Source: Catajapyx aquilonaris | Taxonomy: Eukaryota | Direction: 5' to 3' | DNA: 52,257 bases | NCBI GenBank assembly: GCA_000934665.2 | Contig: KZ538713.1 | Span: 1-52,257, forward strand | Part shown: one piece after another, positions 2,926-45,899 of the stretch | How the letters are laid out: the number at the start of each line of letters is the position of its first letter | Position numbering within the stretch: the stretch's first letter is position 1 | Notes under the pieces: model-generated | What the model was told of the DNA's origin: nothing | What the model saw: only the letters and a program-made list of their open reading frames with translations | The model's database searches: none | Translations under genes and position numbers: made by a program

Positions 2926-3250
2926 GGTCTGTGCAATACCCCAAGAGGGGTCCAAGCACTGCCCGGATTATTTAAAAAAGAATAATAAAAAATATTAGTC
3001 ATATGTCGTGTCATGTTTATTAATAACATAACTGAACCATGAATGGCAGCAGTCACCAACAAATACATCTCATTGACATTAGCACTCTCAAGGCACTTTT
3101 TGCCTTCGTCAGTGTATCAGAACCAAGTGATAAATGCATCTAAGTCATGCATTGTAATGATGCCATTTACATCCATTAATTCATTTCAAAAGGTGGCAAC
3201 GCACACAGCATAACTGACTAGCCAGAGGAAATAGGCATAATCCCACTGAC

Positions 3251-4201: not shown

Positions 4202-5537
4202 CTGTCAAAGAGGAGGTAACATTTCATTAATTTATTGAATGTAAAATAATGTAGACAATTTAACACTGCTGTTCACATAAAATTTTAAATATCACCAAAA
4301 ATAGAGCATCATCACACAATTCAACATATCAATTGCATCATATTCTTTTCCCTTTGAAGGGCAAGGGTATCAATACATTGTGCTTGAATCAAGGACAGCA
4401 GAGGGAGTCACCTTCCAAGTTTGCAAATGATTAGCCCAAACGGGTCATTATTACTAACAACGTCGCAGTACTTTTACAACTGATAAAAAACCCGATATAT
4501 GCACCTGAAAATACATAAATGAATCAGCATAACAATGTTTTGTTGATAACCCTTTGTTGTTAACCCTTCTAGAGGGTGACCTGAGTTATCAGTAGTTCCT
4601 CTGCATTGTTTCCGTAATCCAGCAAAGCCCATATCTGCATTGTGCTTAAATTTTTTTGTATGGAATATATACAGTATTTAACCAAAATATTTGCTGGTAA
4701 TTCATTACAATATCGCATAGCGTACGGAGTGTCTCACACCCTTGCAACCCAATCCAACCCTGCATAACCCCATCCCTGTTTTGGATGTGTGGGTTTGGTC
4801 TCCTCCAAAATATTACAAATCTCAGGAAGTACCCACTTGATTTTTCCACCGAAAAAAAGGTGACCTAGCGGAAGTGGAGTGGAAAACCGGGCTGGAGGGG
4901 TAAGTGCACATGTGATAAGAAAAGCGACAAGGGAAGAAGACCACCAGATGGTCACTGACAACCCAACTAACCTCAACTACCCCCTCTAGTTTTTTTTTCT
5001 GTCTCTTTAACCCTCTCCTTCCCACCATCTATCCTCTTTTTCACCCCCTTTTGCAAACGAATGACTCATGTGGTGGAATAAGAGCCCTGGTGGGGAGTGG
5101 CCAAAACATTTTTTGTGGCACCCCCTGTTGGTATGACATACGTTTCCGTGGAATGTCTCCTAAGGATTAATCACACGCTCGATTTTGAGATGCTTACACC
5201 GAAAAGGTGTCGACAGTGTTCACTAGAAAAGAAACACACGCGGATATCCGTGGAGCCATGCCCACATATGATATTACAAGGGGTTGGGTGGGTGGGCCCC
5301 CTCCATCACTTGACCTGCTATGCAATATTTCCAAGGCTACAACGGGAAGCGACCCATCAAGATAATGGACCTTTGCATTAGGAAAAGCTTCGGCGATAAA
5401 ACCCCCAGCTTTTTTCCCCAAGACAAAACGTTTCCTGGACTGCTACACCCCTTACCCTACATTCGGTTTCTCAACCGACCTAATATTCCTTGAGGAAAAA
5501 GTATAGTACTCTGACGTCACAAAAACATTGCCATGTT

Positions 5538-7803: not shown

Positions 7804-7918
7804 NNNNNNNNNNNNNNNNNNNNNNNNNNNNNNNNNNNNNNNNNNNNNNNNNNNNNNNNNNNNNNNNNNNNNNNNNNNNNNNNNNNNNNNNNNNNNNNNN
7901 NNNNNNNNNNNNNNNNNN
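7804..7918. other. Assembly gap (N run) flanked by poly-C
   Basis: Run of n characters. Confidence 0.99.
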
Positions 7919-22363: not shown

Positions 22364-25300
22364 ATGGACCAGTTAGAGGACCATCCGAGACTAACAGTGT
22401 GTGCGGACAGGTTTAGAGACCTGAGGCCTTGCTGTTGCCACCAGCAGGACACGCTGGATAGACGATGGACACCTAGGTGCCACGATCTGTGTGACAATGA
22501 GTGTCAACAGTGCAGGAGGAGGAACAAGAGGAAAGTGGTGGCGTACGGAGAGTGGAGGTGGTGGAGGAGGAAGTGTGGTCCGCCCGTGACCGGACCATGG
22601 GCCGTTGTCATTGGATTCGCACTTGTGGTCATGGCCTGTGGAGGAGCGCAGGCCCAACCATCACAGGATGGCGGTGAGTACATGCAACAATGCATACATC
22701 CTGGTATCGACGAACCAGGATATAGCGCAACGACGAATTCCACGAAATAACCGGTACCCTGCATTGTCTGCTTATAGATTCATAGAAAGCGTGTCTGTTA
22801 TTGGATAGAAAATGTGCGTAGGTTGTATGCATCAGGGTACTGTACAGCACTAGAAATCGAATGCGCTTAATATAGCATCAGAAATATTGAAGAACTGCAG
22901 TGTAAGTTTACGATACACTGCACAAGCATCTACCCACCTGCTATCGAAATCTGAACGCGATAACTGAGTGCGATAAGTTGTTCATGTCTTGGACATGTCA
23001 CATGGTATATGAGGCTATTCTTGACGAATTTGAGGACCAAACAAATGTGGTTTTGGGACTTTCAATGAGAACCATCAGAAGCACCTATCATTGTGCCATG
23101 TGTCAGGTCTCTGTAGTCTGGAAGTGGGTTAGGTAGCCATTACATATAATTATGTAAAGGAACTTTGCCTTTTATATAGAGACAGATGCGCCTCTTATCG
23201 CCCTCAGTCATCGCATTTGGGTCTCAACGACTGCTTGCAACGCACCGTCCGTCCCTTTTGATTGCGAACGCAAATCTGACCGTCGTCCCCGCCCATCAAA
23301 CAACCCGATAACGACGGTCCGACATTAGCAAGGTACACAAATTAGGACCCGAGTCAACACGCATTGTGCTCGACTATTTTCCAGGGCAAAAACCCTTCAA
23401 AGTACGACCATTGATTGATACACCACTAAAGGCGGCCAAACTATTCCTCGGAAAAAACAGGAATAAGAGCGAGCCAAACGAGGCGTGATTTACGTCACGG
23501 TGTTGGTTTGCCCCGCCCCCTAATTACAACGTTATTCAAACGTGGTTGGGAGCTTTCACCTCATATATAGGGGTAGGGGTTGGTGGGGGGTATATAATTT
23601 TAAAATAAACTTAATACCGGGAGCATTTGCATGTTTGCCACGCTCAGAATGGAAGCAAGGCTTCTATTCTCGGATGTTGACTCACAGGATACCCTTTCAT
23701 AACAGATCGATGAGCCAATAATAGAGTATCAATAGCTGGTTTGATATCTATGGGCACCTTAGCGCTCTATATATAGGGCCGGTTGTGTCGAAGCAATCGG
23801 CTATTTAGCGGTTCGAGGGATTGTCGGGGACCAGTGAAGGACTAGCCGGAGACCAGTGAATGAACAGCCAGAGGACCAGTCACCAGGAGTGAGCAGCCAG
23901 GACAGTCACTAGCGAATGAGCAGCCAGAGGACCAGTGGCCAGAGAATGAGCAGCCAGAGGACCAGTCACCAGCGAATGAGCAGCCAGGGGGCCAGTCACC
24001 AGCGAATGAGCAGCCAGAGGACCAGTGGCCAGAGAATGAGCAGCCAGAGGACCTGTCACCAGCGAATGAGCAGCCAGGGGGCCAGTCACCAGCGAATGAG
24101 CAGCCAGAGGACCAGTCGCCAGCGAATGAGCAGCCAGGGGGCCAGTCATTTAGTGAATGAGCCAAGGGGTAAATCACTCGGCAGTTGAGCGTACAACGGA
24201 CTTGTAAAGAGCCGGACTTGTCGGACTTGAGCCCGGACTTGGCGGACTTGGCGCCAACCGTACAACGGACTTGACGAGTGATTTACCCCTTGGAATGAGC
24301 ATCCAGGGGGCCAGTCACCAGTGAATGAACGGCCAGGGGACCAGTCACCAAAGAATGAATACAGAGCCCAATGAAGGACCACGCGGGGCCCAGGCAAGGC
24401 GCAGTCTGGGACCCCCGAGTCGCACCGTTGTACGTGTGACTAACCCCCTCAGTTTTCGGGTGTGCCTGAGACTCTGAGGGTTGTTTTGGTCTGGCCCCCC
24501 CCCCACCCCCCGGCCCACCATGTCTGCAGCCAGTCCAATCCATTCTCCTCCCGGCAGCGTGAAAAGTGGGCCATGGCACTTTTTCTAGCTTTGGCGTGGC
24601 GTCTGCGTTCCCCGGATGCTGCGCCACGCTTCCTGAGAGAGGGGAGAGAGAGAGAGAGAAACCCTCAGAGTTTTACCTTTTACAGGGGCGCCCCCCAAAA
24701 AATATATAAGGCGGAGAACCGGAGAGGGGGGAGGGGGACCAAGGGCGGGTCTTGTGCCGAAAAAGCGGGTCGATATGGGGCGTCGGGACGGCTGACGACG
24801 CCACTACCCCCCACCCCACACTGACTGAGGGGGAGCGTCAATGGCGTCGTCGGAATAGTGAGGCTCATTCATCGTGTGACCCGTCCGTTGTTCAAAAGGT
24901 GCCCCACGTGTATGTACACTTTCAGGAGTAAGGTAGCAGACCTGAAGCTCAAAATAGTCTCCAAGAGGATCTCCGTCACTACTCAGTGAGAGAGCCGCTC
25001 TTGGAGGCTATTTTGAGCTTCAGGTCTGCTACCTTACTACTGAAAGTGTACATGTACACGTGGGGCACCGAGTGGGGCACCTTTTGAACTGCTGGGTGGA
25101 CACCCCGGACAAACATTGGCACAGACTCTTACCTGAGCCATGATGGCACGCGTTGGGTCACCGTTTCGACGTACGTCCAAAATAGCAGCGTAATACACGG
25201 GCCAAAATGGGCCAACGTTTTCTGGGAGCCCGTGAATCACCCTCCATAATTTCGCAGACACCCATTAAAACCCATTTATGCCACTGACTCACAGTCAGAG

Positions 25301-28300
25301 CCAGACATCTATTTTTGAGCCAGGCCCACCCTCGTATGTTGTTATTGAATAATTAGTAGAGAAGTGTCTACTTGCAGAAAATAAATAGAAGCCTAGGAGG
25401 GGGGGTTTTGTGCGGCGTAGATGTCCGCGTCGTAGTATTTTGACGTCAGCCGACCGACGTCACCGTCGACGGGGCCAAAGAACCGCTGCCCACGACGCCA
25501 AATTAAATCAAAGGGGGGCCGGAAATGAATTGCGGGCCGACGCCATCCCCATCTAGTGACGGGGCCTGGATTGGAGTGTGCTCCCTCGGGGGTCATCCCC
25601 CAGATATGTTTTTTTTTTCCCCAAGCCCTTCACCTGATCCCGTTTTAAAGAGTTTGGGTCAAGGGTAGAGATATTCAGGCAGACGCGTCGGCGCCTTTTG
25701 GTTCAATGGGGCTTTTTGGTATGGCGAAGCTTATGGGGGAGACCCTGGAAGCCTCTCTCTCTGTGTGTGTGTTTGAGCCTTTGGATCAATACTTGAACCT
25801 CGGCCGTATGTACCTGCCGGCATTTTGAAGGCGTGGGTGGAAAACAGAGACGTCACTTTTTTTTTGACGCAGGGGTCAGGTCAGATTTCGTGGGGATGGA
25901 AGGTGATGCCATCTAGCGGTGGGTCAGATGCCTGCCAGAACGAGGGTTTAAAAATTGCTGGGTCTGGAAACATGTTTTGGTATTTAAATGTTTTAAATAT
26001 ATGAAGTACTGTAGTTTCAAAAATTTCAAGCTGATAGCCAGACGGGCGCTGCCATCTAGCGGTGGGTCAGCCTGTAGGACGGTTTTGAACATTTCTGGGC
26101 CTGTAAACATGTTTGTGGCATTAAAATGTTATGAAGTACTGCAGTTTTAAAAATATTCAAGGTGATAGCCAGACAGGTGCTGCCATCGAGCGGTGGGTCA
26201 GTCTGCGTAAAGGATTTTTAAAAAGAGGGAGGCACGTCAACATTAAAATGGCTTAAAATTAAAAATAAATTCATGAAGTGCTTTGAAGAAAATTACCAGG
26301 TGAATCCATGACAGGTGCTGCCATGTGCCATCTAGCGATGGGTCAGCCTGTACAGTATGAGGGTTTTAAAGTTTTTGGAGCGTACATCTTCAAGCCCAAA
26401 AGTAGCATTAAAAGTGGGAAAGCGTTATATCGAGGTTTTACTGTATATGACGTAGTTTTCAAGAATATATATATTCAGGCTGATAGCCCGACAGGTGCAG
26501 CCATCTAGCGGTGGGTCAGAATATGCCTGAAGTGTTTAAAATAATCTGGACGCCTGTCAAAATGGCTTTAAAATGTTTTAAAATGTTTTAAAATGACAAA
26601 ACAGTGTAAAGTGTGCAGTATTTTTATTTTTAAAAAAATCATGCGATGCCGCCACAGATGTTGCCATCTAGCGGTGGGTCAGTCTGCCTGAACGAGTTTT
26701 AAGAAAATCTCGGGGCCTGTAAACATTAATGACATTAAATTGTTGTAAAATTAAAAATAAACGCATGAAGCGTTTGGAAGAAAATTTCAGGTGAATCTAC
26801 GACAGGTGCTGCCATATGCCATCTAGCGATGGGTCAGTCGGCCTGAACGAGTTTTAAGAAAATCTCGATGCCTGTAAACATATTTATGGCATTAAAATGG
26901 TTTAAAATTAAAAATAAACGCAAGTGTTTGGAAGAAAATTTGAGGGGAATCGACGACAGGTGCTGTGCCATCTAGCGGTGGGTCAGTCTGCTCTGAACGA
27001 GTTATTTTAAAATCGCGATGCATGTAAACATATATTGAGGCTTTTTAATAGTTTACACTCTTATTTAAACTGCCGATACAGGCAATACATCAAATGTATT
27101 CGTTTTTTGCACTAGCAGTAGTTCTGTAACATTGAACTGTAAACAGCAGTAAACTATACAGATAATGGTGAAAAGTGAAATGCATGTAAGGGAAGTCTCC
27201 CTGTATAATTATACCGTAAGGTGCTCAGACCTCAATCTCGTATTTATCTATCTATCACTTATTATGTGAAGCAGTGTTAAAATGAAGCTAATGGTCCGAC
27301 AGGTGCTGCCATCTAGCGGTGGGTCAGTCTGCCCTTAATGAGTTATTTTAAAATCGCGAAGGCCTGTGAACATATTTTGAGCCTTTAAAATGATTTAAAA
27401 TTTAAACTTAACATATGAAGCAGTGTACAAAAAAGTGATGGCCCGACAAGTGCTGCCATCTAGCGGTGGGTCACTGCCTGACCAATTTGTTTAAAAATGG
27501 CGCCGCTAATACGCACAACTGCTGATTTTGCTGATGAATAGAGCTTAATTGGCGAATATCTTCACACTGGGTTGGCTCCTGTATATTATTTCGCCCGACT
27601 TGAAACGCAGTTGATTCGAAAAGGTCAGTTGCATTGACAACACCCCATGCTGCTGAGCCTGAGTCGTGGGGGGATTTGTCAATAAATTTCAATGTCATGA
27701 GAGAGGAATATTAAGGACGGCCTCATTGAGCACACTTCCTTTCTCTGGAAGAGTTAAAAAAGAAACGCGCAAAACACACGCTCTACTGCGCCATAGGGAC
27801 GGTGGGGTAGGGGGGGGTGGGGGATTTAAAGTTGCGCAAAAATGGCGGGTATTACAACCGGATTTATATGTTGTAACCGGATGGAAAAGGCTGAATTTAT
27901 ATACAGTATTTGGTATTTAATGTAAGTATATTTTTGCAGTGTTTTCCGGCTGGCCCACCGCTAGATGTCAGCATCGCCTGGAAATTATGTTAATGCGTTA
28001 CACACTTATTTTTAGCTGTAAAATATTTTTAACAGCATTATATATGCCATTAAAAATATACATGAATATTTGCAAGGTCACTCACCTAATATATTAGGTC
28101 AGCGACCTTGCAAATATTCATGTACGAAACCTACCCCATGCACCCCATATGTACCCATATGTACTCGAGTCTTGCAGTAAAACACTGTAACCTTGTGCTG
28201 TCAATTTGCAAAAATGGGATCAATATCGTGAAATAATAGGTCAGTTAAGACACGTGCTATAGTTTTTGTTAGTTTGCAAAAATTTGTTGGCGAAAGTATA

Positions 28301-31300
28301 GGGGTCTAGACTGGTCGACATTGCGTGCAGTCTTGCGAAACTGTTGCGCACATTTAACAGGGTTTTTGCGTGAGTTTTTTTTATGTCGTGGGGGAGAGGT
28401 CAGTGACTCTGGATGGGTGAGGGGTGCTTACTCATAGGAGACTAATTTTACCTGGGTATGAATAAAAGTGAATATGAATGACCTTTGACCTCTTGACCCA
28501 CAGTGTGCCAGAGCATTGACATCAGGAACAGCGTGGATATGTTCCAGCGACTCAAAGGCTGTAGGGTGATTGAGGGGTTCCTACAGATCCTTCTGATTGA
28601 CCATGCTAACGAGTCAGAGTACCAGAACCTGAGGTTTCCAGAGCTGACCGAGGTGACCGGGTACTTCCTGCTGTACCGGGTGTATGGCCTGCGCACCCTC
28701 AGACACATCTTTCCCAACCTGGCGGTCATCCGGGGGAACAAGCTCTTCTTCAACTACGCCTTCGTGGTCTTCGAGGTCCTCCATATGCAGGAGATTGGCC
28801 TCCCTGGACTCACAGACATCCTCAGGGGCAGCGTCCGGATTGAGAAGAACCCTAACCTCTGCTACGTGGACACCGTGGACTGGGACCTCATCGCTAAGGC
28901 TGGAAAAGGCGGACACTTCATCAAGGTATGGCCTCAAAATAGGTTCCTAAATTTGAACATCTTGACCAATTTTTGTCAATTGTTCACAGGGGAACAAAGC
29001 GAGCGACGAGTGTCCCAACATCTGTCCCAGCGAGTGTCCCAGGTCGTCGCACTCCCTCCAGCTCCTGTGTTGGAACAGCCAGCACTGTCAGAAAGGTGAC
29101 CGACTATTTTTGAGATGTGCATATGGGGTCTACCTGTCACACAGTTTGTCCTCTAGACAGGACATGTCCCCAATTTGGGTCCAGGGCATGTGTCCAAGTC
29201 ACACACACCTGAAATAGACATGTCAGCAAGTACATGGGAAAAAATGTAACTCGAGGATGTTGTTTGTCACTCATGTACACAGCGTTATTATTTTTTTTAT
29301 GCTTGTTGTTTTGCCGGAGGGCTTTTTTTATTTTTAAAATTTAGTGCCTCATAAAAGTGGGAGGCCATTTGCATGGAAAGAATGGAGGAAGGAAATGTGC
29401 TGAGGTTTTTTTCCCCCCTTTCTGTCATTTGTTTAACGAGTGTGTATGCATAACAGATCTGTATTTCAGCCGATTATATGTGGGGGTGGGGGTGGAATAA
29501 TGGTTATGAATCTTTCAAGCGGATGATGACGTTGGCATTGTGCTAACCTAAACCGGAAACATTAGGTTTAACGTTAGTGGTTTGAGTTTTTTAATGGGGG
29601 GAAGTTGTGTTGGTTGTAAGGAGGGTTTCAGGGGATTGGGAGGGGGAGGGAAACAGAGGTTATCAGATTGATTGACAGGTGTGGGATCAGGTGATGTCAC
29701 CAGTACATATCTGAGGGATATGGATTTCATGGATGTGTTTGTGACACGCGACTGTTTATCAGAATGGGATAAGTGACGGATCTGATTTTATCTGGCGTCT
29801 ATGTAAAGGTTAGAAATAATTTATGTGTAAATATGCATTAATATACGGTAGAGTACATATGTACTTTCTGTACGTAACTTGATCCAGTGTGATTGGGTAC
29901 AGCAAGTTTCCGGTGCTGCATGTGCCGTGTTTGCCTGCTTGCCAAGCTTGTTTTATTCCGGTCACATTGCCTTCCCCGTAGAATCTGATTTGCAATTAAG
30001 GTTCTTTCTGCACACAAGGAGGAGGATGTAAAGTTGTTGACAAGGTTCCCACAGGTGGGATGTTGTTTCCTGCCTCCCCCCCTCCCCTTCACCTTTGGCA
30101 ATATCTAAGGGGCCACGTGGAAACTTTCCCATGGGGAAGTGTGTTGAGCTTTTCAGAATATTTGATGTGCGTCTGATTCAAATTTTGTTTGTTTCAGTGT
30201 GCGACCAGTGTGGGTCGCTGGCCTGCAATGGGTCAGTCTGCTGCCACGAGCAGTGCTTGGGGGGGTGCAGGGGTCCTCTCCAGAGAGATTGCGTGGCCTG
30301 CAGGCATGCCGTCCTCAACGGGGACTGCATCGAGCACTGCCCATCAGAGACATACCTGGTGAGTGCTGTCATCGCGTGGGTTCAAGTCACACCACTTCTT
30401 GCGTTCTCTCAGCGGCACAATCTGGTCCTAAAACTGGGGTTAAAGACCTGAAATGCAGATAGCCTTTTGCACCCGAAGTCTAGTTAATTTCCGGTCGGAA
30501 AGGAGGCAAAATCCCTGCCGCTTCACATCTCAGGTTTCCTTCTGATCAGCAGAATTTGAAGGGGTTTCCTCATGTATATAAAAGGCTACTCCATTGGGTT
30601 CATCAGGCATTGAACCAAGGCTACCACTGTTTTGTGGGAAGAGTGCAATGCACTTTGGAGGAAAAACAGGCTGGCCTTATAACCAGGAAAACATGGCTGT
30701 GCCCATTTCTGCCCTACATATTGTGTGGTGGATGTTGACATGCTGTAATAATTATTGCCTCTGCAGTACCTCCAGCGCAGATGTGTGACAGACTTTGAAT
30801 GCATGGATATGCCGCCCCCGCTGGATCAGTATTATGAGACTGGCCTCAATTGGAAGCCGTTCAACCTCACCTGCACACTCAAGTGCCCTCCAGGATTCGA
30901 GGAAGTCAAGGAAGGAAACATGTATACCTGCCGAGAATGCAAAGGTGATTGAGAGAGCCTTCCTGGCATTGGACTAGTGTCATTATCAGCATTTTGTCAT
31001 TTTGGACAGGCAAGTGCCAGAAGGAGTGCGTCGGATTGAATGTGGACAGCATCTCAGCAGCTCAGAAGCTCAGAGGATGTACTTACATCAGGGGAGCTCT
31101 GGAGATCCAGATTGGAGGAGGAAGTGAGTCGCCTTTTTCCACATCATTTCCCTGGAGCTTTGGGGAAGGACGGCATTGAACAGCTAATCCAAATTGCTTT
31201 TCTGTTCTTTAGAGAATGTCATCAAGGAGCTGGAAGAAAATCTGAATTCCATTGAGGAGGTTGAAGATTACGTGAAAGTGAGTCGGTCGTTTCCACTGGT

Positions 31301-34300
31301 GTCCCTCAACTTTCTCAAGTCCTTGAGAATTATCCATGGAAAGAGGCCGGAAAGAGACCAGTAAGGAGTTCATCTTGGAATGTTGGGTTTTTGATTGGCA
31401 TGTGTTCATTCATTGTTGCGTTATAGATATGCCCTGGTTGTGTATGAGAATCAGAATCTGCAGGAGCTCTGGAACTGGACTAGCAGAGCACACCCACTTG
31501 AAATCAGAGGCAAGAGCAAGTTTTTTTTCCACTTCAACCCGAAACTCTGCCTGGAGAAGATCGAGCAGCTTAGGATTGTCACAGGATTGCCCGAGTTTGA
31601 CCCTGCGGATGTGGCTCCAAATTCCAATGGAGACAAAGTAGCATGTGAGTTTGGAAGAATATTAGAAAAATATTTACAAATTTTAATGGTGCTGGTCAAT
31701 TTTGCAGGCGAACTGGAGAGGCTCAACTTGGTGGTGGACAAGAAAGCTCCAAAGGCAGTTGTGCTGCAGTGGGACAACTTCAGGAGGCACCTGCCCGACA
31801 GGAGGTCTCTGCTGGGATACATAGTCTCTTATATCGAGGCCCCATACCAGAACATCTCTCTCTACGAAGGAAGGGATGCATGTGGAGGAGACGGGTTAGT
31901 TATTGTGCCACACTTTTATTTGTGTGCATAAATTGAGTTCATGACATTTTCCTTCCTCCTACCATTCCTACACAGGTGGAAAGTGGATGATGTATCTGCT
32001 AATGATGACATCAACTCTTCCTCCACTGGACCTGAGGTTGAATACGAGTCTCACATAATTACCCAGCTGAAGCCTTTCACCCAGTATGCAGTGTACGTGA
32101 AGACCTACACCATTGCCTCTGAACGTCGTGGAGCAGAGAGCAACATCACATACTTCACCACCCATCCAGACACTCCCTCTCCGCCAGTTGAGCTTCAGGG
32201 TCATTCCAGGTCACCCTCCCAGATTGCCATAGACTGGAAGGCACCCTCGTACCCGAATGGCAACGTCACATACTACAGGGTGTACCTCCACGTAGAGCAG
32301 GATGACCGAGACTTCCTGGACCAAAGGGATTATTGCAAGGAACCTCCGTTGCCCTCAGACCACAAGAAGAAGAAGGAGGGGGAGATTTGGGAAGACCCGG
32401 ACAAAAAGGGGTCGTTTTCAGGCCAAGGCGTTGATGGAGAACCATGTTGCGCATGCCCCAAAAACAAGAAGCAGCTGGAGCAGGAGGAGCAGGAGATTCA
32501 GTTCCAGATTCACTTTGAGGACTTCCTGCATAATCAGGTTTACATTAAAAGGTAAGCGTGTGATATGCTCCTCTACTTACAAACAAATCAGGATCAGTAT
32601 AACTCGGCTCATACCTGGAGACTCGCAGGAAACCAACACCTCCTGCATCAACTTATGCTTTTCAATCCTTGCAGGCAGGACATTTCTGACAAGAAGCGTC
32701 AACGTCGTTCCATCTCGTCAGTTCCGTGGGACCTACCGATCCCAGCTCCACTCTTAGGCAACTCCACCATGCCCACTCCAACCTCTGAACGTCCCCCACA
32801 GGAGATGTTCACCCAGCCAAAATACTTCGTGAATCAGACCCACCTTACCATTGGGAATCTGTCCCACTTTACGGAGTACACCATTGCAGTGGAGGCCTGC
32901 CGTGAGAGCCACCCGGAGATCAAAGTGGACAGGAAGGTGTGCAGCACCAAGAGCATAATCACCATCCGTACTCTGCCCTTGTCAGTAGCGGACGCAGTTG
33001 ATTCAAGAGGTGTCTCTCTGGAGGTGTCAAACCACACTTCAGGCAGAGTCAGATTGCGATGGGAGGAAGTCAGGCGTCCCAACGGACTTGTGGTGGCCTA
33101 CCACATAGAGTACAAGCGAGCAGATATTGAGAGTGTGAAGCCCACAGTTGAGTGCATCACCAGGAAGCAGTTTGAGCAGGGGGGCAGGTCTCACGAGATT
33201 GGGAACCTGGCTCCTGGTAACTACAGCTTGAGGCTCGCTGCCACCTCCCTGGCGGGGATCGGGAATTACACTGCACCCAGATACATTCTAATCAGAGTGA
33301 GTGTCTTGGCATCTTCGTAATTGGTAGCTGTTCAACGTGATTCATTCTTCATTTTTGCCTGCAGGAGCCAACCAACAGACTCTCTACGGAAACCATTGCG
33401 GCCATATGTGCAGGGGTCCTTCTGGTTGTGGTGATGGTTGCAGTGACAGGAGCTTTCTATTATCGCAAGAAGATTTCTCAGACCATTCCAAACGGGATAT
33501 TGTTTGCTTCCGTCAATCCAGAGTATGTCAGCGCTGGGGACGGTAAGTGTGCCTGAGTTGTTGAACATGCATTGTAATGACTTGCATTCTGGTGAATGAA
33601 AAATAACTTGTTTTGTGCTTCCAGTGTATGTTCCGGATGAGTGGGAAGTACCCCGTGAAAAAATAGAGCTGATCCGTGAGCTGGGCCAAGGTTCATTTGG
33701 AATGGTCTATGAGGGACTGGCCATAGATCTAGAGGAGGATCAGGGGAGCATCAAGTGTGCCGTCAAGACTGTCAATGAGCATGCATCCGATCGGGACAGG
33801 ATTGAGTTCCTAAACGAAGCTTCTGTCATGAAGTGAGTGCCTTACCATATGCAATTACAACTCAATGCCATATGCAGTTTAATTTATGGTGCCAATTAGC
33901 GAATCCGCAGGAGTGCATGCCAACTGTGCAAACAAATGCAGTGTTCCTTAATAGCAAGAAGCATGCCATAAATCACAAGGTCCTGTTCATTCAGCATGCC
34001 TGTTCCTCTATTTCGTAGGGCTTTCAACTGCCACCATGTAGTGAAGCTTCTGGGTGTGGTGTCAAAGGGTCAGCCGACCCTGGTGGTAATGGAGCTAATG
34101 GCCAGTGGTGACCTGAAGAGCTACCTCCGCTCCCACCGTCCAGACTGCCCTGCAGAAAATCCCTCCGACCAGCAGCCACCCACCTTGAAGCGAATTCTCC
34201 AGATGGCAGCAGAGATAGCAGATGGGATGGCCTATCTTGCGGCCAAGAAGTTTGTCCACCGGGATCTGGCTGCCCGCAACTGCATGGTGGCCGAGGACCT

Positions 34301-35218
34301 GACTGTCAAGATAGGGGACTTTGGGATGACCAGGGACATCTACGAGACAGACTACTACAGGAAGGGAAGCAAGGGACTCCTGCCAGTCAGGTGGATGTCA
34401 CCAGAGAGTCTGAAGGACGGGGTGTTCACCTCCCAGTCTGATGTCTGGAGCTATGGAGTTGTGCTCTGGGAGATGGCCACCCTTGCCTCACAGCCTTACC
34501 AGGTTTGAGAAATTACAGAGGAACAAATATGTCATTTCACACTTTGATAGGTCATGAACTCGTCTTTGGCACTCAAAAGCTGCTGATGTTAATTTAGGAT
34601 GTGCACATTGCTCGATTGACACGATTTTTCACGCAGGGCCTGTCCAATGAGCAAGTTCTCCGCTACGTGATTGATGGAGGAATAATGGAGCGTCCTGAGA
34701 ACTGCCCAGAGAAACTGTACGAGCTGATGACTGTTTGCTGGCAGCATTCGCCCCACGCTCGCCCTCGCTTTATGGACCTAGTCTCGCTCCTGCTCACTGA
34801 CGTCAGCCCTGAGTTTTCCCAAGTGTCCTTCTACCATGGGGCAGAGGCGCAGGAGCTCCGGGCTCAGAAGGAGACTCACCTGCACAGGGAGAGGGCTCAG
34901 GAAGCGGAGGAGGAGGAAGACTTAAGTGCCAGTGAGAGTGACGAGGAGGAAGCCACCCCGCTGACTCCCCTGAGGACAGGCATCGTGTTCTGTCCAAGGA
35001 ACAGTGGGTCCGAGAGTGAAGGGAGTGACGAGAGTGTGGGAGAACCAGAGTTGAGAGAGGTCAGGACTGACACCATGGCCGTTGTCAACAGGGAGGACAG
35101 CGGGGGGTTGGCCACGGTCAACTCGGCTTCCAGCGAAGGGAGCAAGGCCAGCGGGAGAAGTGCCGCCAATGGGTTCATCAGTCACAGGACGCCAGTGATG
35201 AAAACTACTGAGTGCTAG
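22364..35218 (+). CDS. InR: Insulin/IGF-like peptide receptor, paralogue a (canonical), 15 exons, ~1497 aa
   Basis: Exons 22364-22673, 28504-28925, 28990-29095, 30198-30358, 30767-30944, 31010-31123, 31213-31360, 31427-31644, 31708-31894, 31976-32551, 32675-33296, 33365-33542, 33625-33832, 34019-34502, 34637-35218. All GT-AG and phase-consistent (4494 nt). Domains: L1 (CQSIDIRN...FPNLAVIRG), furin-like Cys-rich, L2, FnIII, CCAC triplet, alpha[16 protein letters not shown] cleavage site, TM, NPEY, kinase [23 protein letters not shown]. The start ATG was chosen by homology with paralogue b. Confidence 0.97.
23830..24370. repeat. 30-bp minisatellite (aatgagcagccagaggaccagtcaccagcg) in InR-a intron 1, interrupted by cggacttg repeats
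   Basis: About 9 well-preserved units at 23880-24150, with degenerate flanking units. Confidence 0.92.
24890..25089. mobile_element. 200-bp nested palindrome/MITE in InR-a intron 1
   Basis: Outer arms gttcaaaaggtgccccac / gtggggcaccttttgaac; inner arms agtaaggtagcagacctgaagctcaaaatag / ctattttgagcttcaggtctgctaccttact (same family as 9524-10175). Confidence 0.8.
25901..27973 (-). repeat. Array of ~130-175 bp units with conserved core GCCATCTAGCGGTGGGTCAG (CTCF-like) and AT-rich variable spacers
   Basis: Cores start at 25908, 26051, 26182, 26327, 26500, 26663, 26818, 26967, 27308 and 27455; one inverted copy at 27954. Confidence 0.9.
28059..28124. repeat. 66-bp near-perfect palindrome
   Basis: tacatgaatatttgcaaggtc...cctaatatattagg...gaccttgcaaatattcatgta. 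Confidence 0.85.
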
Positions 35219-38200: not shown

Positions 38201-39442
38201 ATTTCATTCGTATTCGGAAAGGGTCATGTGTTTTCTGTACGTTACGTTCTCCTCAACATATTTTGTCAAAACTGATTTAAGCAATAGAAAAGCATTTGTT
38301 TCGTAACAATGTGTGGCCCTCTGCGCAGCAGAAAAGGAGAATAAAACACACACACTCACCCATACACACACATTCATTGACACCAGGTTTGAAGAAGATG
38401 CTAAATGAAAAGTTCCAAGTGCTGTACTCAAAGGCTGAACTTACTTTTTCCATAATTGCTTGTGGGGGGAGTCTAATAACGATGCCTATTTAGTATTTTG
38501 TGTAATATTCCACATGTTGTGATTGACCGTGTAGCTATAACAACAGGCGTCTTTTATTACTGGCAGGGGATACATTTGGAAAATTTGTAAGAGAAAGTGC
38601 GTTCCTCCTCCTGTTGTACAGAAGAAGAAGAAAATAATTTATTTTCACGTCTCCTATAGTGAATGGAATTCTCGTAGGACGTAGATGGATTTTAAAAAAA
38701 TGTTTGCAGTATTAATTTCACCAAGTCTCCTTCAGATTGTAAGGAAAATAATTAAACAGGGATCCGTTATTATTATAATGGAGCATATTGTACATAAAAT
38801 GATGAAAACAATGAACATTGCAGTGATTATTTCAATTTCCTGCACTCAACCTAGGTGACGATGACGCCAAATAAAGTGGGCATTTACTTTTTCACATACG
38901 ACGTCTTTGTTCGTCTGAAAAGTATTATCGCTCGACGGCATACTCATGAGCAAGTCTACTGGAAAATAAAAGAGGTCTCTGCTCCAACACTATTGTACGT
39001 TAGAGTACGCATGGTGTCTACTGATGTACATTGGTGTTGGATCAAAAGACGAACTACATTTGATGTTCAAGACTGATAAAACAATACTTTCAGGTGGCTC
39101 AGAGTGAAGTAGCTTCTCCTGCCTGGGTATTCTTGAGGTTCATGGGGAATTCTGCGTCGAGGATGACCAAGGAGCATCAAAGTATGACAATTACAGGTAT
39201 GGTGTTTATTCAACTCGAAGATTATTCATACAGTGTGTACCAAAAGTCCAAAAGTGCACCAGTAAGAAGATATGTGAACTAAAGCATGGTCATCTCTGCT
39301 TAATGGATATGTTTTAATTACAAACATACAGTGTGTGAATGATGAATGGCTATTTATTTGTCAACAGACAGCATCAAGACATAAAGTGGTAACTAATATT
39401 ATCAATAACTTGAGAGCACAAGAACATATTTGTGAAGTAATT

Positions 39443-42400
39443 CTAATGGCTACTCGAATATCTCATATCATTCAGCGTCAGTGGCGTACTGTAACAAAAC
39501 CCGTTGGCAGCTCCCAGATCTTTGCTTATGTTGCAATAGACTGAATCACTTGATTCCATCCTGGGACTCCCTTCTCGACTGATCCTGATCACAATTGCGC
39601 CGTCTTCCGCAGCATCCGTGAATGATCCTGGTTGCTCTTCGTAATCATTACTTTCAGACCCGCTGCTCCCTAGACCAACCCCAATCCCCGGTGTGAGAAA
39701 TGTCAATGGAGTTGCATCCTCTTCAGTCATGTCTTCACTTTCATTGGTGCTTGAGCTTTCCTCATGTAGTCGTTGCCTGTACATGCTGAATTTTTCCTTG
39801 GCCCGAAGTGCTAGGGCCTCCTCCCCGTGGTAGAAGGACACTTGGTGGAACTCAGGGCTGACATCAAGGAGCAGGAGAGAGATCAGTTCCATGAAGTTTG
39901 GGCGGTTGTTTGGAGTGTACTCCCAGCATATAGTCATGAGTTCGTAGAGCCTCTTCGGACAGTTTACTGGTTGCTCCATTATGCCCCCTTCTGTGATGTA
40001 GCAGAGGACTTGTTCGTTTGACAGGCCCTGAAGGAAAGGAAAGGATTTGTATTGAGTAATTGATGGAGCAGACAATATTTTAAGTGATTGCATTTTAGAC
40101 CTGGTATGGCTGCATGGCGAGGGTGGCCATCTCCCAGAGCACAACTCCATAGCTCCAGACGTCTGTCTGTGAGGTGAACACCCCGTCCTTCAGACTCTCG
40201 GGTGACATCCACCTGACTGGCAGGAGTCCCTTGCTTCCCTTTCTGTAGTAGTCTGTCTCGTAGATGTCCCTGGTCATCCCAAAGTCCCCTATCTTGACAG
40301 TCAGGTCCTCGGCCACCATGCAGTTGCGGGCAGCCAGATCCCGGTGGACAAACTTCTTGGCCGCAAGATAGGCCATCCCATCAGCTATTTCTGCTGCCAT
40401 CTGGAAGACCCGCTTCAGAGTGGGTGGCTGTCGGTTGGATGGGTTTTCTGCAGGGCAGTCTGGACGGTGGGAGCGGAGGTAGCTCTTCAGGTCACCACTG
40501 GCCATTAGCTCCATTACCACCAGGGTTGGCTGGCCCTGTGATACCACACCCAGAAGCTTGACTATGTGGTGGCAGTTGAATGCTCTGCAGGGGGAGACAT
40601 ATTGAGTAATGATGCTGAAGAACATTGCAGACTAGTAAACGCTAGGGCTACTTACTTCATGACAGAGGCTTCATTGAGAAACTCAATGTGGTCCCTAGTG
40701 GAAGCATTTTCATTCACGGTCTTAACTGCGCAGTTGATCTTTCCCTGACCCTCCTCCAGGTCCATGGCCACTCCCTCATAGACCATTCCAAATGAACCTT
40801 GACCCAGTTCCTTGGTTAGCTCTACTTTGCTCCGGGGTATTTCCCACTCGTCCAGAACGTATGCTGCAATGCCAACTTCCATGAGTAAACACTGCAATCA
40901 TATTTCTGCGTTATTACTTACCATCACATACACTGGCATATTCTGGATTGACAGACGCAAATAGGATCCCATTCGTTATAGATTTAAATGATTTCCTGTA
41001 GTAATACACAGCTCCTGCCACCACCACACCAGTCAGGAGCACCCCTACTGTTATGGCTCCAACAATGTACGCAGGCACCTCATCTGGTGCAGCATGTGCT
41101 GGTCCCTATTGCAATGTCGTAATTGATAACGTGAGTCTTTTGCATTAATTTTTATTCTCATCAAAACAGCTTACCTGGAGGAAGACATATCTGGGTGCAG
41201 TGTATTTTCCCACCCCGGCCAAGGAGGCTGCGGCCAGCCTCAGACTGTAGTTACCAGGAGCCAGGTTCTCCACCTCGTGCAGCCTGCCCCTCTGCTCAAA
41301 CTGCTTCCTGGTGATGCACTCGACTGTGGGCTTGGCACTGGGAATGTCTGCCCTCTTGTACTCGATGTGGTAAGCCAAGACAAGCCCATTGTAGAGCTTC
41401 ACGGCCTCCCACTTCAGACTGATCTTGCCTGAGGTGTTGTTAGACACCTGCACCGTGACTCCCTTTGAGTCAATCAAGTCTGCTTCGGAGAGAGAAAGGG
41501 TGCGGATGGTGACCAAGCTCTGTGAGCTGCACACCATGGAGTCATCCCAGATCTCAGGGTGCCTGTCACGGCAAGCTTCCACTGCAATGTTGTACTTTGT
41601 AAAATGGGTCAGGTTCTCTATGGTGAAGTTGGTATTGCTGGTCCTGTACTGAGGCTGGTCCTGCACAGAGCGCCGTTCATGTTTCTTGTCAAGTCTGAAA
41701 CAGGACACAAAAATTGGTGAATTAAGGCAGTCGACAAACAATTATATTGAATCCAGCTTGCATGAGAGTTACAGTATGAGCCTCACTTTTTGACATAGAC
41801 TTGGTCTTGCACGAAGTCCTCAAAATTAATCTTAGACTGAACCACCTGCTCCTGCACCTCCAACTTGTCCTTTGGGCACTGGCAACACTCCTTACCCAAA
41901 CCATCCAGAAAAAATACTTCCTTCTTCTTGTCGACCTCCACCTTCTTCTTGTCTACCTGCACTTCCTCCTCCTTCTTCTTCACCTTATTGTGAAAAGAGG
42001 ACAACTGTGGGTTCTTGCAATAGTCCCTCTGGTCCAGGATGTCCCGGTCATCCTTCACCAAGTGGAGGTACACATTATAGTAGGTCACTTGGCCTTTGGG
42101 ATGCAAAGGGGCCTTCCAGACAATGGCAATCTGGGAGGGTGACCTGGCATGGCCCTGGAGGTCAACTGGAGCGGAGGGCGTGTCTGGATGGGTGGTGAAG
42201 TAGACAATGTTGCTCTCCGCTCCAATACGCTCTGGGGTAACAGTGTAGGTCTTCACATACACTGGGTAAGTCTTCACATACACGGCATACTGGGTGAATG
42301 GCTTCAGCTGCTGGAGCATGTAGGCCTCGTGTTCAGGCTTTGGTCCGATGGTTGCATTGGTGTAAGTAGTGGGGACATCATCTACCTTCCACCTTCTTGT

Positions 42401-45400
42401 ACAAGTAGTGGTGGACAAACTAATGTTAGCAACAGGTGACATCAAAAGAATACATGCCATGTACTGACCCATCACGTGCTCCTCTAGCCTCATAGAGAGA
42501 TATGTTTTGGTCTGGTGCCTCAGTGTAGGACACCATGTACCCCAGAAGTGTCCTGTCATCATCAAGTTTGTTCCGGAAATTTCTGTCCCATTGAAGAGTC
42601 ACATTCGTTGACGACTTGTTGTGTATCACTAGATTCAGCTGCTCCAACTTGCCACCTGGACATGAGAAATGTCACTCACAATTCAGTGCATACCAGACCA
42701 TCGTACAACTTACATGCGACGTTATCTCCATTAGAGTTGGAAGCAATGTCTGCGTCTTCTGCTGGAGGAAGTCCTGTGACGTTGAGGAGCATCTCGATTT
42801 TCTCCAGACACAGTTTAGGATTGAAGTGGAAGCGCATCTTGTTGCCTTTACCACCAATGCGGAGTTTGTGTTCTCGATTTGACCAGTCCCACAGGTCATG
42901 CAGGTTCTGGTTCTCGTAAACTACCAGGGCGTACCTGCGTCCCCAAAGACATCAAATCTCATATTGAACATACTGAAGAGACAAGACCAACCGATTTTTC
43001 TCCGGCTTCTTCCCATGGATGAATCGAAGTGACTTCAGGAAGTCAAGCGACACCAGAGGAAACGACCAACTGATCTTCACGTAATCATCCACTTCCTCGA
43101 TGGCACCCAAGTTGTCTTCCAGCTCTTTGATGACATTCTCTAAGGATCAACATATCTGTGTCACAACCTTTTCTGACAATCATCTTCACAACTTCAGAAC
43201 TCTACATACACAACTATATACAACTCCACAACTTCAGAACTCCACAACTTTAGAACTCCACAACTTTAGAACTCCACAACTTTAGAACTCCACAACTTCA
43301 GAACTCCACACAATTCTACAACTCCACAACATCCCATGCATCAATGGTTTTGTGGGGTGTTGTGGACGAGTTCTGGTTGTAGAGTTCTGAAGTTGTAGAG
43401 GTGTGTGGAGTTGTGGAGTTCTCTGTCACTTTGTGACCCTATGAACTCTGTGGAATCCGATGAATGCATTGACTCACTTCCTCCTTCGATCCGAATCTGC
43501 AGAGATCCTCGGATGTGCGTGCATCCTTGAAGTCGTCGTGCTGCTGAAATGCTGTTGACCAACAATGCATTGCATTCCTTCTGGCATTTTCCTGTCACAA
43601 TGAGAAAGAAAGTGTCCTCATGAGAAAGTCAAGATCATCCTCATGTCCGTACCTTTGCATTCTCCGCATGTGTGTTTGCCACCTTCTGTGACTTCCTCGT
43701 ATCCTGGAGGACAGTTGAGGGTGCAGGTGAAGTTGAAGGGCTTCCAGTGAATACTAGCTGTGTCGTGGAGCTTAATGTCCATGATGGTTGGTGGAGGCAT
43801 GGCCAGACACTCGGACTCGGTAACACACCGACGTTTCAGGTACTGTCGAGATGCAAGTGTTATCGTCTAATATACTTACAAGGGAACGACCAAGGTCGGT
43901 CGCCTCCGATTTGGTTTAAACTCGTTTGAGGGGTCACTCATGTGCTTTAGACACGGTGGTGAAAGTCCTAGATGCCACTGTCCATCAGTTTCCGAGATAT
44001 GAGCGACAGAAACATCCGAATTTTGGCCGCGCGTATAGGGGCCAAATAGCGGATGTTTCTGTCGCTCATATCTCGGAAACGGATGGATAGTGGCATCTAG
44101 GACTTTCACCACCGTGTCTAACGCACATGAGTGACCCCTCAAGCGAGTTTAAACCAAATCGGAGGCGACCGACCTTGGTCATTCCCTTGTTAGGGTAAGC
44201 GAAAAGCTAACCAGATACTCCTTGGAGCCGATGGAACAGTGATCGACACAGTTTCCGTCCAAGACTGCGTGACGACATGCGAAACAGTCCGTTGAAAGCG
44301 GACCTGAACATCCTCCCAGACACTGCTCGTGGCAACAGTACTGTCCATAGCACGCTTTTCCTTCACAGTGGTCGCACACTGGAAAGGGCATTGTCAACAG
44401 TAAAACGTCACAGCTAGGACACCTCTTCAGTAAGTACCACCCACATATTGTACCAAAAGTGCGCGAGAACACATATACTATTGTGTGGAAACTACGTAAA
44501 TTGTGAGGGTACCCGCATTTTCCCCGTACTACTGATAACGTGTCCAAAGGTGGGCTTTTGTTCCACAAATACCAAGAGTTGACCCTTGTCCTATATTGAG
44601 GAAAATGAGTATCAACGACCTGCCTGAACAGAAACAACACAACATCCGGTCGTAGTACGCCCACGTAGTCTGGCGTATGTTTTTCAAATGGAATCACCGG
44701 ATCCTCCTGCATATCTTAAAGAGTTTATGGGAAGTCGTAAAAGACACTTGTGGGCTGGCGGACAAAACATGGCCGTAAAAATTTAAAAAGGGCAGTAAAC
44801 AACTCTAAAATGGCACGACCAACAGTGATCGGACGGTTCTTACGTGTCTGACAATGATGACTGCTCCAACAAAGGGTCTGAGTGGAGTTGAGCAACTTCG
44901 GACAGTCTTTGGGACAGATGTCCGGACACTCGTCGCTCGCTTTGTTTCCCTAAGATGGACAGATGTTAAAGACAATGAGGATGAGGTGGACATCCACTGA
45001 CCTTGATGAAGTGTCCGCCTTTCCCATCCTTAGCGATGATGTCCCAGTCCACGGTGTTCACATAGCACAAGTTGGAGTTCCCCGCAATCCGGACACTTCC
45101 CTTGAGGATGTCCGTGAGTCCAGATAGGCCAATCTCCTGCATGTGAATGACCTCGAAGACCACGAAGGCATAGTTGAAGAAGAGCTTGTTCCCACGGATG
45201 ACCGCCAGGTTGGGGAAGATGTGTCGGAGGGTACGCAGGCCGTACACTCGGTACAGCAGGACGTACCCGGTCACCTCGGTCAGCTCTGGGAAACTCAGGT
45301 TATGGTACTCTGACTCGTTGGCATTGTCAATCAGAAGGATATGGAGGGCACCTTCGATGACCCTGCATCCACGTAGTTTCTGGAACTTGTTCACGTTGTT

Positions 45401-45899
45401 CCGGATTTCCATTCCCTGGCACACTGTGGGTATTTTTAAACACAGTGATTTGCTGACGGACATGACCCGCATCCGTCAGAGATTCCTATCAGGTGAACCC
45501 TTCGACACGTGGAGTCAAAATGTCATTTCTGAATATAACTTGTGACGCACGTTGTCACCTGCAGCTTATAGTTAAAACCCATCAGACGCATATAAGCAAA
45601 TCGTAGGTGGTCCTCAAAACCGGCCCTAAACTAACCTAACCTTCCTTGCGGATACAGCTATCTTCAGCGGATACAAAAACCTATGGGCCAGCTGCGGAGA
45701 CCACCTGCAATTTGCTTATATGCAACCAGGACTTACCGCCATCCTTGGAAGGCTGACCCTGTGCCATGACCATAAGGGTCATGACCCACAACCAGGTCAT
45801 GGTCTGACCCCACTTCATCCACTTCTTTCTGGACTGTTGTCTGTTGTCCCACTTAGGTGTCCATCGTCTGTCCAGCAGCAGGTCAACCAAGTGGTCCAT
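39443..45899 (-). CDS. InR: Insulin/IGF-like peptide receptor, paralogue b (divergent), 15 exons, ~1434 aa
   Basis: Exons 45899-45737, 45423-45002, 44949-44844, 44378-44212, 43842-43653, 43591-43478, 43139-42992, 42934-42714, 42655-42469, 42392-41787 (NAGNAG alternative 42395), 41694-41175, 41105-40922, 40863-40656, 40584-40101, 40027-39443. Same intron positions and phases as InR-a; no stop or frameshift seen (4305 nt). NPEY and all kinase motifs are intact. Confidence 0.96.
43190..43420. repeat. 16-bp minisatellite (aactccacaactttag) with inverted copies, InR-b intron 6
   Basis: Tandem units at 43190-43330; reverse-complement-like units at 43350-43420. Confidence 0.85.
43879..44189. mobile_element. 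PIF/Harbinger (Tourist)-like MITE, near-complete palindrome, in InR-b intron 4
   Basis: Arms of ~150 bp caagggaacgaccaaggtcggtcgcctccg... / ...cggaggcgaccgaccttggtcattcccttg, flanked on both sides by TTA (43876-43878, 44190-44192). Confidence 0.85.

Follow-up and report, generated by a model that had tools for sequence, protein, structure and literature searches.

Insulin-type receptors are set apart from other receptor tyrosine kinases by being covalent dimers. In the human receptor the alpha chains are joined at Cys524 in the FnIII-1 domain and at one at least of Cys682, Cys683 and Cys685 (PMC8513149), and the protomers rotate about Cys524 (PMC10618199). In the Drosophila receptor Cys873 links FnIII-1 to FnIII-1', a region that the authors describe as crucial to the dimeric state (PMC10560217). 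A mouse receptor in which the triplet is mutated and Cys524 is kept (IR-3CS) binds insulin and autophosphorylates, signals poorly and adopts mostly asymmetric conformations (Li et al. 2022, PMC9731570). Receptor genes have multiplied independently in many animal groups including crustaceans, and lineage-specific duplicates are reported in insects (PMC7253209). Daphnia pulex is described as having four insulin receptors (InRs), one without the cysteine-rich (CR) domain, one without the kinase catalytic site and one with a large insert, all of them expressed and under purifying selection (PMC2978223), and decapods have three subclades, InsR1-3, one of which is apparently the receptor for the androgenic-gland hormone (PMC11024359). 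Here we analyze a stretch of 52,257 nucleotides (nt) from Catajapyx aquilonaris (GenBank assembly GCA_000934665.2, contig KZ538713.1, positions 1 to 52,257 of the forward strand; hereafter the window), which holds two insulin-receptor genes, InR-a and InR-b. InR-b lacks the FnIII-1 cysteine that is found in every other receptor compared, from fish to molluscs, and we consider with moderate confidence that it encodes a working, kinase-competent and diverged insulin-like receptor.

A tblastn search with two database receptors identified only two insulin-receptor loci in the window, and the stop-to-stop open reading frame (ORF) lists contained two insulin-receptor-like exon sets, one on the plus strand at approximately 22.2 to 35.2 kb (InR-a) and the other on the minus strand, between 45.9 and 39.4 kb (InR-b). 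Exons of the 2 copies were paired by matching ORF pieces with BLASTP. The 14 junctions were then chosen among frame-open donor-acceptor pairs using a simple splice-consensus score and the homology between InR-a and InR-b. At most junctions the top-scoring pairs of the two copies coincided in homologous residue and phase; for introns 4 and 9, the pair that is homologous between the copies was taken over a slightly better-scoring one. All introns have GT..AG borders in both genes (14/14 each), intron phases agree at 14 of 14 junctions, and no internal stop interrupts the 1434 codons of InR-b, InR-a being likewise open. Position 45899 is the first base of the InR-b ATG, with an in-frame stop 15 nt upstream, and the stop codon ends at position 39443. 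This start is supported by the initial residues and by 27 nt of exon 1, which InR-b has in common with InR-a. The first exon of InR-a (22364-22673) encodes an N-terminal extension, with 10 cysteines absent from InR-b, that precedes a signal-like hydrophobic segment; the N-terminal extension of InR-b is much shorter.

The 2 genes are inverted and convergent, lying tail to tail with their 3' ends 4.2 kb apart. Their introns are mostly 50-90 nt long, and intron 1 measures 5.8 kb in InR-a versus 313 nt in InR-b. The encoded proteins share 963 of 1398 aligned residues (69%), and all insertions and deletions between them fall between whole residues, so that the frame is kept. At the DNA level only exons align (67-93% identity); where alignments run across intron 2 (52-64 nt) and several further short introns, they merely link the flanking exons. 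These figures also bear on the idea that the second copy is an assembly artefact, either a haplotype or a mis-joined contig. The window does contain three runs of N (1461, 7804-7918, and 19461), which mark the assembly as a draft, but all of them lie outside both genes, and copies that differ at 31% of residues and whose introns do not align are far beyond allelic divergence. We therefore regard an artefact as extremely improbable, and the haplotig version of it is ruled out by a divergence that is far too high.

InR-b retains the domain architecture of the family. Scanning single exons against Pfam detected Recep_L in exon 2 (E 2.5e-27, corresponding to L1) and in exons 7 and 8 (L2), and fn3 in exons 10 and 11; the PK_Tyr_Ser-Thr match runs from profile position 1 to 257 of 258. 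Every cysteine is retained in the cysteine-rich exons 3-5, for which an alignment with InR-a and the reference receptors was obtained, and the alphaCT segment can be aligned to the chains of human IR and IGF1R and to 83 other receptors. The glycine loop, the catalytic loop, DFG and the Y-x-x-x-Y-Y activation loop are all present and match those of InR-a, letter for letter from the catalytic loop onward. Other family marks found in InR-b are the single transmembrane (TM) segment, the juxtamembrane NPEY motif, the CCxC triplet, and the cysteine pair of the alpha-beta disulfide; the two that it lacks are the FnIII-1 cysteine (human Cys524) and a basic R-x-[KR]-R cleavage motif. An initial annotation of this DNA had described InR-b as an inverted duplicate keeping all 15 exons, TM, NPEY, and a complete kinase, a description that the intact splice borders, the near-complete Pfam kinase match, and the tail-to-tail arrangement with the plus-strand InR-a bear out. 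With a complete kinase, a kinase-less decoy is ruled out.

The loss of the FnIII-1 dimer cysteine is the most unusual change in InR-b and is unique among the approximately 174 receptors compared. The codon concerned is CGT (Arg, 42476-42474) in InR-b and TGT in InR-a (31881-31883); beside it, the 2 following Gly codons are deleted and a conserved Asp is replaced by Gly. In our alignment the cysteine is present in InR-a and in 83 of 83 other receptors, which come from vertebrates, a hemichordate, molluscs, chelicerates, a millipede, a copepod, springtails, and insects. When a profile of the flanking block was run against 233 other proteins, 94 rows were obtained, of which 4 did not cover the cysteine column and were dropped; the cysteine was present in all the remaining rows (90/90). 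This residue is the sole cysteine difference between InR-b and InR-a in the mature ectodomain, the CCxC triplet being kept.

The cysteine codon lies at the end of exon 9, and 3 in-frame acceptor candidates exist for the following intron (Table 1). Rescue of the cysteine by another exon 9 donor was rejected, as reading past the chosen donor yielded no homologous Cys and then a stop. The other ranked pairs for intron 9 had lower scores and either deleted conserved residues or, in the case of acceptor 42419, added a distant Cys. The AG of that acceptor, at 42421-42420, would add 9 amino acids (aa) including the Cys and is located 6 nt after a branch-like TGCTAAC; the resulting intron of 49 nt would be shorter than every other intron of both genes. 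As a rule, an AG this close after the branch point is skipped. Given the spacing, we judge use of this upstream acceptor, and with it of the new Cys, unlikely. The 2 remaining candidates form a tandem AAG-AAG (42392-42397, minus strand), from which exon 10 would start at 42395 or at 42392, the latter being homologous to InR-a; this tandem acceptor could yield 2 isoforms that are one Arg apart.

FnIII-1 carries a further change, an in-frame tandem duplication of 21 bp that doubles 7 residues of a strand showing almost no variation across the family. A 7-residue insertion at this place is absent from all 83 other receptors, although the copepod receptor contains 5 extra residues and three fish receptors contain one. 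A second duplication of the same length is located in the variable insert domain (Table 1).

We then compared the primary ligand-binding site, for which 17 residues of L1 and 10 of alphaCT are reported to contact insulin or each other (Lawrence 2021, PMC8513149). The L1 exon of InR-b aligns without gaps to the human receptor, residue 1 of the query corresponding to human residue 8, and this mapping was validated by the fish receptors, which show the human residue at the conserved positions checked. At these published positions InR-a carries a common arthropod residue in 27 of 27 cases, whereas InR-b differs from InR-a at 8 of the 27. The differences in L1 are at human 12 (D to E), 40 (a variable position), and 120 (E to A); those in alphaCT affect 5 of the 10 key positions, namely 704, 709 (L to V), 710 (H to Q), 711 (N to D), and 715 (variable). 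For 5 of the 8, the InR-b residue occurs in at most 5% of other receptors; among the alphaCT residues, the share of other receptors with the InR-b residue is 20% for Q at 710, 5% for D, and 2% for V. Next to position 120, the residue equivalent to human Lys121 is Lys in 70 of 76 other receptors and Gly in none of them, and it is Gly in InR-b. The InR-b residues at human 32 and 114 were likewise seen in none of the other receptors. The L1 changes at 120 and 121 are at least as notable as that in alphaCT.

Processing and the C-tail also distinguish the 2 copies. The cleavage motif is RQRR in InR-a and HERR in InR-b, where it is followed by a deletion of 31 residues. R-x-[KR]-R occurs within 75 residues after alphaCT in 71 of the 83 other receptors; 6 more have Lys at P4 and the last 6 have neither. 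KKHERR of InR-b matches neither R-x-[KR]-R nor [KR]-x-[KR]-R. Minimal cleavage by furin takes Arg at P1 together with basic residues at two of P2, P4, and P6. Being basic at P1, P2, and P6, the InR-b site is probably still cut, perhaps less efficiently. The last exon is only 50% identical between InR-a and InR-b, and C-tails are variable across the family. The Y-x-N context binds SH2 domains of the Grb2 type, and the new tail tyrosines of InR-b, one of which is in this context, may recruit different adaptors; we take this as a lead only.

The initial annotation had singled out the dimer cysteine, the alphaCT helix, the furin site, and the C-tail as the sites at which InR-b departs from InR-a. 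All four differences are present, and they turned out to be of unequal weight: the cysteine loss is unique, whereas the alphaCT and cleavage changes lie partly within the variation of the family and C-tails vary throughout. The altered dimerization, ligand recognition, and processing that it had proposed are suggested by the sequence. To its list our analysis adds the L1 changes at 120 and 121, the two 21-bp duplications, the fast evolution of InR-b, and conversion of the kinase exon.

To polarize the differences between the copies, we used the 83 outgroup proteins over 1281 comparable columns. InR-a and InR-b are identical in 909 columns; the change is derived in InR-b in 127 and in InR-a in 27, and 218 are ambiguous. 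The asymmetry of 127 versus 27 is highly significant (chi-square 64.9, p 8e-16) and agrees with the end branches, which measure 0.12 for InR-a versus 0.39 for InR-b in one tree and 0.13 versus 0.36 in another (trees 1 and 2, described below). The excess on InR-b is found in most exons: the b:a ratio of derived changes is 13:1 in L1, 21:6 and 17:5 in the FnIII exons, 8:1 in exon 13, 5:1 in exon 14, and 20:4 in exon 15, where the kinase ends and the tail is encoded, with exon 4 even (3:2) and exon 5 reversed (0:3). This indicates that InR-b is the derived copy and has evolved approximately 3-5 times faster than InR-a.

Fast evolution and the loss of a universally conserved cysteine are what would be expected if InR-b were silent or an incipient pseudogene, its open frame reflecting past constraint and repair by conversion from InR-a. 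The substitution pattern points in the other direction. The pairwise rates of nonsynonymous (dN) and synonymous (dS) substitution are 0.205 and 1.03, a ratio of 0.20, and by exon the ratio is 0.10-0.41 where dS is unsaturated; InR-b is not evolving neutrally. Splitting dN by the polarized counts and dS equally gives lineage ratios of 0.2-0.4 for InR-b and 0.03-0.11 for InR-a, which are rough, since dS is saturated in most exons and the split comes from protein outgroups and not from a codon model. At 258 near-invariant columns of the family (agreement of 95% or more), InR-b retains 250 residues and differs at 8, and InR-a differs at 1. The 8 are the FnIII-1 cysteine, the Asp 2 residues before it, a Pro in the CR region, an Asn in FnIII-2, a Pro to Val change shared with InR-a, and 3 changes in the kinase (V to I, S to T, and V to I). 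These last are the only differences in exons 13-15, where InR-b retains 133 of 136 such columns. InR-b changes are thus five-fold depleted at conserved columns (7/258 versus at least 120/1023, Fisher p 2e-6). In addition, the 4.3 kb of coding sequence and the 28 splice sites contain no stops, frameshifts, or broken sites despite a near-saturated synonymous divergence, and every insertion or deletion relative to InR-a keeps the frame. Altogether, these results show that InR-b is under purifying selection and far from neutrality.

Part of the gene nevertheless shows the marks of conversion. Synonymous divergence amounts to 0.24 for exon 14 and 0.41 for exon 2, compared with approximately 0.9-1.0 in exons 10, 11, and 13 and with saturation in exons 4, 5, 8, and 9. 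Fourfold sites differ at 13 of 77 positions in exon 14 and at 164 of 350 elsewhere (Fisher p 8e-7). Exon 14 contains 27 consecutive identical fourfold sites, a run equalled in 1 of 20000 permutations, and identical tracts of 140 nt and 83 nt, and its identity of 93% ends at the exon borders. Its GC content at third codon positions is ordinary (0.6). The likely explanation is that gene conversion has homogenized exon 14 of the two inverted genes, being confined to places with sufficient remaining homology; very strong constraint on the synonymous sites of this exon is the residual alternative. A weaker pattern in exons 2-3, with 17 of 60 fourfold sites differing versus 144 of 277 in exons 4-13 and 15 (p 0.001), indicates that conversion probably occurred there as well. 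Conversion, clear in exon 14 and probable in exons 2-3, is the third observation that fits a decaying copy. However, exons 13 and 15 are unconverted and yet constrained (24/24 and 16/17 near-invariant columns retained, dN/dS 0.14-0.16). We consider a silent or decaying InR-b quite unlikely.

The age and distribution of the pair were analyzed with 2 trees. Tree 1 (FastTree, 85 rows, 1337 columns) comprised InR-a, InR-b, and 83 of 172 proteins; left out were fragments shorter than 1100 aa, 2 Trk-like and 2 ErbB-like proteins, and a large number of insect and fish rows that were near duplicates. Tree 2 (IQ-TREE quick search, LG+G4, 50 rows) used only columns of exons 4-11 (707 kept) and skipped exon 14 because a converted exon is uninformative on age, exons 4-11 being without sign of conversion. 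Both trees recover InR-a and InR-b as sisters (100% support) that share a long stem (0.33-0.36), and the pair is placed in the pancrustacean part beside winged insects and springtails. InR-b thus groups with InR-a to the exclusion of all 83 other receptors, in agreement with the lineage-specific origin put forward in the initial annotation. Within the limits of the sampling, the duplication is specific to this lineage; the receptor sample contains a single crustacean, a copepod with a very long branch, and no malacostracan or branchiopod.

Database searches were consistent with this isolated position. The L1 exon retrieved 55 proteins at E <=0.001 among 219 candidates, with a top identity of 66%; the kinase exon retrieved 2700 proteins at E <=1e-40 among 7154 candidates, the best 120 of the 2700 being 79-88% identical; and the FnIII/insert exon retrieved 5 proteins among 383 candidates. 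When full-length proteins were compared, the closest were insect receptors (cockroach, katydid, and damselfly), with identities of 54-58% to InR-a and 47-52% to InR-b. InR-b exon 10 was also searched exhaustively with HMMER against 1.84 billion cluster representatives, which gave 721 proteins at E <=0.001; none of the best 150 of the 721 exceeds 46% identity to InR-b in this exon, whereas InR-a reaches 64%. A scan of metagenome contigs gave 113 pattern matches and no relatives by tblastn. The libraries searched thus contain neither the species itself nor any close relative.

Together these observations suggest how InR-b may have arisen and how it may work. InR-b would have arisen long ago, when InR-a was duplicated in inverted orientation in a pancrustacean lineage that the sampling does not cover, and it would be the copy that has diverged since. 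It is probably still a covalent dimer, joined only via the insert domain. Without the FnIII-1 link, the FnIII-1 domains would lose their fixation at the point around which the human protomers turn. The 5 rare changes at the primary site, the Lys121 to Gly replacement, and the 7-residue insertion probably shift the preference or affinity for the peptide. A more specific proposal, which we advance only tentatively, is that InR-b, tied through the insert domain alone and with its L1/alphaCT site remodelled and its FnIII-1 hairpin enlarged, has another activation geometry and cooperativity, a private peptide and a new tail coupling, on a kinase core that continuing gene conversion keeps interchangeable with that of InR-a.

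InR-b could also be functional and simply redundant or subfunctionalized, for example by tissue or stage, its changes being tolerated drift. Lineage-specific receptor duplicates are reported to be common in arthropods (PMC7253209, PMC2978223, PMC11024359). The changes at site 1 are mostly conservative (D to E, L to V, N to D, and H to Q), all with precedents, and they hit site-1 positions no more than the rest of InR-b; the cysteine triplet, which provides the second covalent link, and the Arg-Arg at the cleavage site are retained. On the other hand, it is unlikely that a cysteine found in 173 of 173 other rows could be lost with no effect, and the same holds for a Gly seen in no other receptor at a position that is Lys in 70 of 76 and for the unique insertion of 7 residues in a conserved strand. 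The 4.7-fold rate asymmetry touches every domain. Plain redundancy is therefore in our view unlikely.

Several observations weigh against a working receptor with altered properties. InR-b is known here from genomic sequence alone, and no orthologue in other species was found in the libraries searched. The perfect kinase core is not by itself evidence of selection, as exon 14 has probably been converted, and the lineage dN/dS ratios have the roughness stated above. Each alphaCT residue of InR-b has a precedent in some other receptor, and the canonical cleavage motif is absent from 12 of the 83 other receptors too. The L1 contact positions show no excess of change (3/17 versus 23/140 over the whole L1 exon), which general acceleration accounts for as well as directed change does. 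Finally, the alternative intron 9 acceptor, if used, would place a new cysteine approximately 10 residues downstream. Should InR-b prove not to be expressed, it would be no more than a duplicate in slow decay and of little interest; expression and conservation in relatives, if true, would raise the interest in it sharply.

Table 1. Coordinates of InR-a, InR-b, and the InR-b features discussed in the text (window positions).
Feature	Position	Strand	Remark
InR-b gene, ATG to stop	39443..45899	-	15 exons, 1434 aa; junctions by frame, splice score, and homology with InR-a
InR-b exons	45899-45737, 45423-45002, 44949-44844, 44378-44212, 43842-43653, 43591-43478, 43139-42992, 42934-42714, 42655-42469, 42392-41787, 41694-41175, 41105-40922, 40863-40656, 40584-40101, 40027-39443	-	
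InR-a gene, conservative paralogue	22364..35218	+	15 exons, 1497 aa
InR-a exons	22364-22673, 28504-28925, 28990-29095, 30198-30358, 30767-30944, 31010-31123, 31213-31360, 31427-31644, 31708-31894, 31976-32551, 32675-33296, 33365-33542, 33625-33832, 34019-34502, 34637-35218	+	
L1 residues at human Glu120 and Lys121	45080..45085	-	Ala-Gly in InR-b
FnIII-1 inter-protomer cysteine site (human Cys524 equivalent)	42471..42494	-	end of exon 9; cysteine lost in InR-b
Intron 9 acceptors	42392..42421	-	three in-frame candidates
FnIII-1 strand, 21-bp tandem duplication	42242..42283	-	in-frame, 18/21 nt identical
Insert domain (variable), second 21-bp tandem duplication	41921..41962	-	in-frame, 19/21 nt identical
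Insert-domain cysteine triplet CCQC	41876..41887	-	retained
alphaCT segment	41792..41827	-	differs from InR-a at human 704, 709, 710, 711, 715
Alpha/beta cleavage site KKHERR	41670..41687	-	His at P4 where InR-a and most relatives have Arg
Transmembrane segment	40998..41066	-	
Juxtamembrane NPEY	40938..40949	-	
Tyrosine kinase domain	39875..40825	-	exons 13-15, including introns
Likely gene-conversion tract in exon 14	40203..40526	-	InR-a exon 14: 34019-34502
Divergent C-tail	39446..39874	-	five tyrosines absent from InR-a, one in Y-x-N context

Other features of the window were recorded alongside the 2 genes. Intron 6 of InR-b is full of 8-, 16-, and 32-nt tandem repeats (43184-43422), and because these repeats fill it the intron measures 338 nt versus 89 nt in InR-a. 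The 5.8-kb first intron of InR-a contains, at 23864-24282, a minisatellite-like array of a unit of approximately 30 nt with several frames open on both strands. An AATAAA is located 85 nt past the InR-b stop (39358-39353, minus strand), within the interval 35219-39442 between the genes, and the first plus-strand AATAAA past the InR-a stop is 2.5 kb off, at 37760. Upstream of InR-a, an arrestin-domain gene on the minus strand (14497-14916 to approximately 15868) is marked by an Arrestin_C exon (E 5.8e-24), and a PDZ exon (47293-47532, minus strand, E 4e-8) lies 1.4 kb beyond the InR-b start. A serine-rich open frame of 345 aa without Pfam match occupies 3189-4223 of the minus strand.

A diverged extra receptor is an already known kind of gene, and what was not found described in the literature searched is the loss of the FnIII-1 cysteine in a receptor that bears a kinase; the supplementary trees and alignments of PMC7253209 and PMC11024359 could hold such a case. 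By title, the literature on Cys524 and the insulin receptor consists, among the papers listed, only of work on the human receptor and of reviews. InR-b may offer a natural test of this bond and might reveal the part that the FnIII-1 link plays in activation and cooperativity. With InR-a it also forms a case of mosaic evolution, in which the ligand-binding half diverges and the catalytic exon is homogenized by conversion. Compared with the canonical arthropod receptor (Drosophila InR; insect Cluster I of Smykal et al. 2020, PMC7253209), InR-b has the same order of L1-CR-L2, 3 FnIII domains, insert domain, TM, NPEY, and kinase; it is 47-52% identical to it over the full length, both genes are intron-rich, and both proteins have 3 activation-loop tyrosines. 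Unlike it, InR-b is without the FnIII-1 cysteine (fly Cys873, PMC10560217), and it has the 7-residue duplication in FnIII-1, a non-canonical cleavage site, and rare residues at 5 primary-site positions. The paralogues described in Daphnia, decapods, and insects resemble InR-b as extra copies within a lineage, under purifying selection and with the oddities in one copy. Their reported oddities are losses or gains of whole domains (no CR, no kinase site, a large insert), with no mention of a lost inter-alpha cysteine, whereas InR-b keeps all domains, has changed at single sites, and stands in a tail-to-tail pair with conversion. Decoy receptors (insect SDR and DR2, Daphnia InR-4) also derive from duplication, but InR-b, unlike them, has a complete TM, juxtamembrane region, and kinase. 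InR-b can also be compared with mouse IR-3CS, in which, as in InR-b, one of the 2 classes of inter-alpha disulfide remains: InR-b is its natural converse, with the triplet kept and the FnIII-1 link lost.

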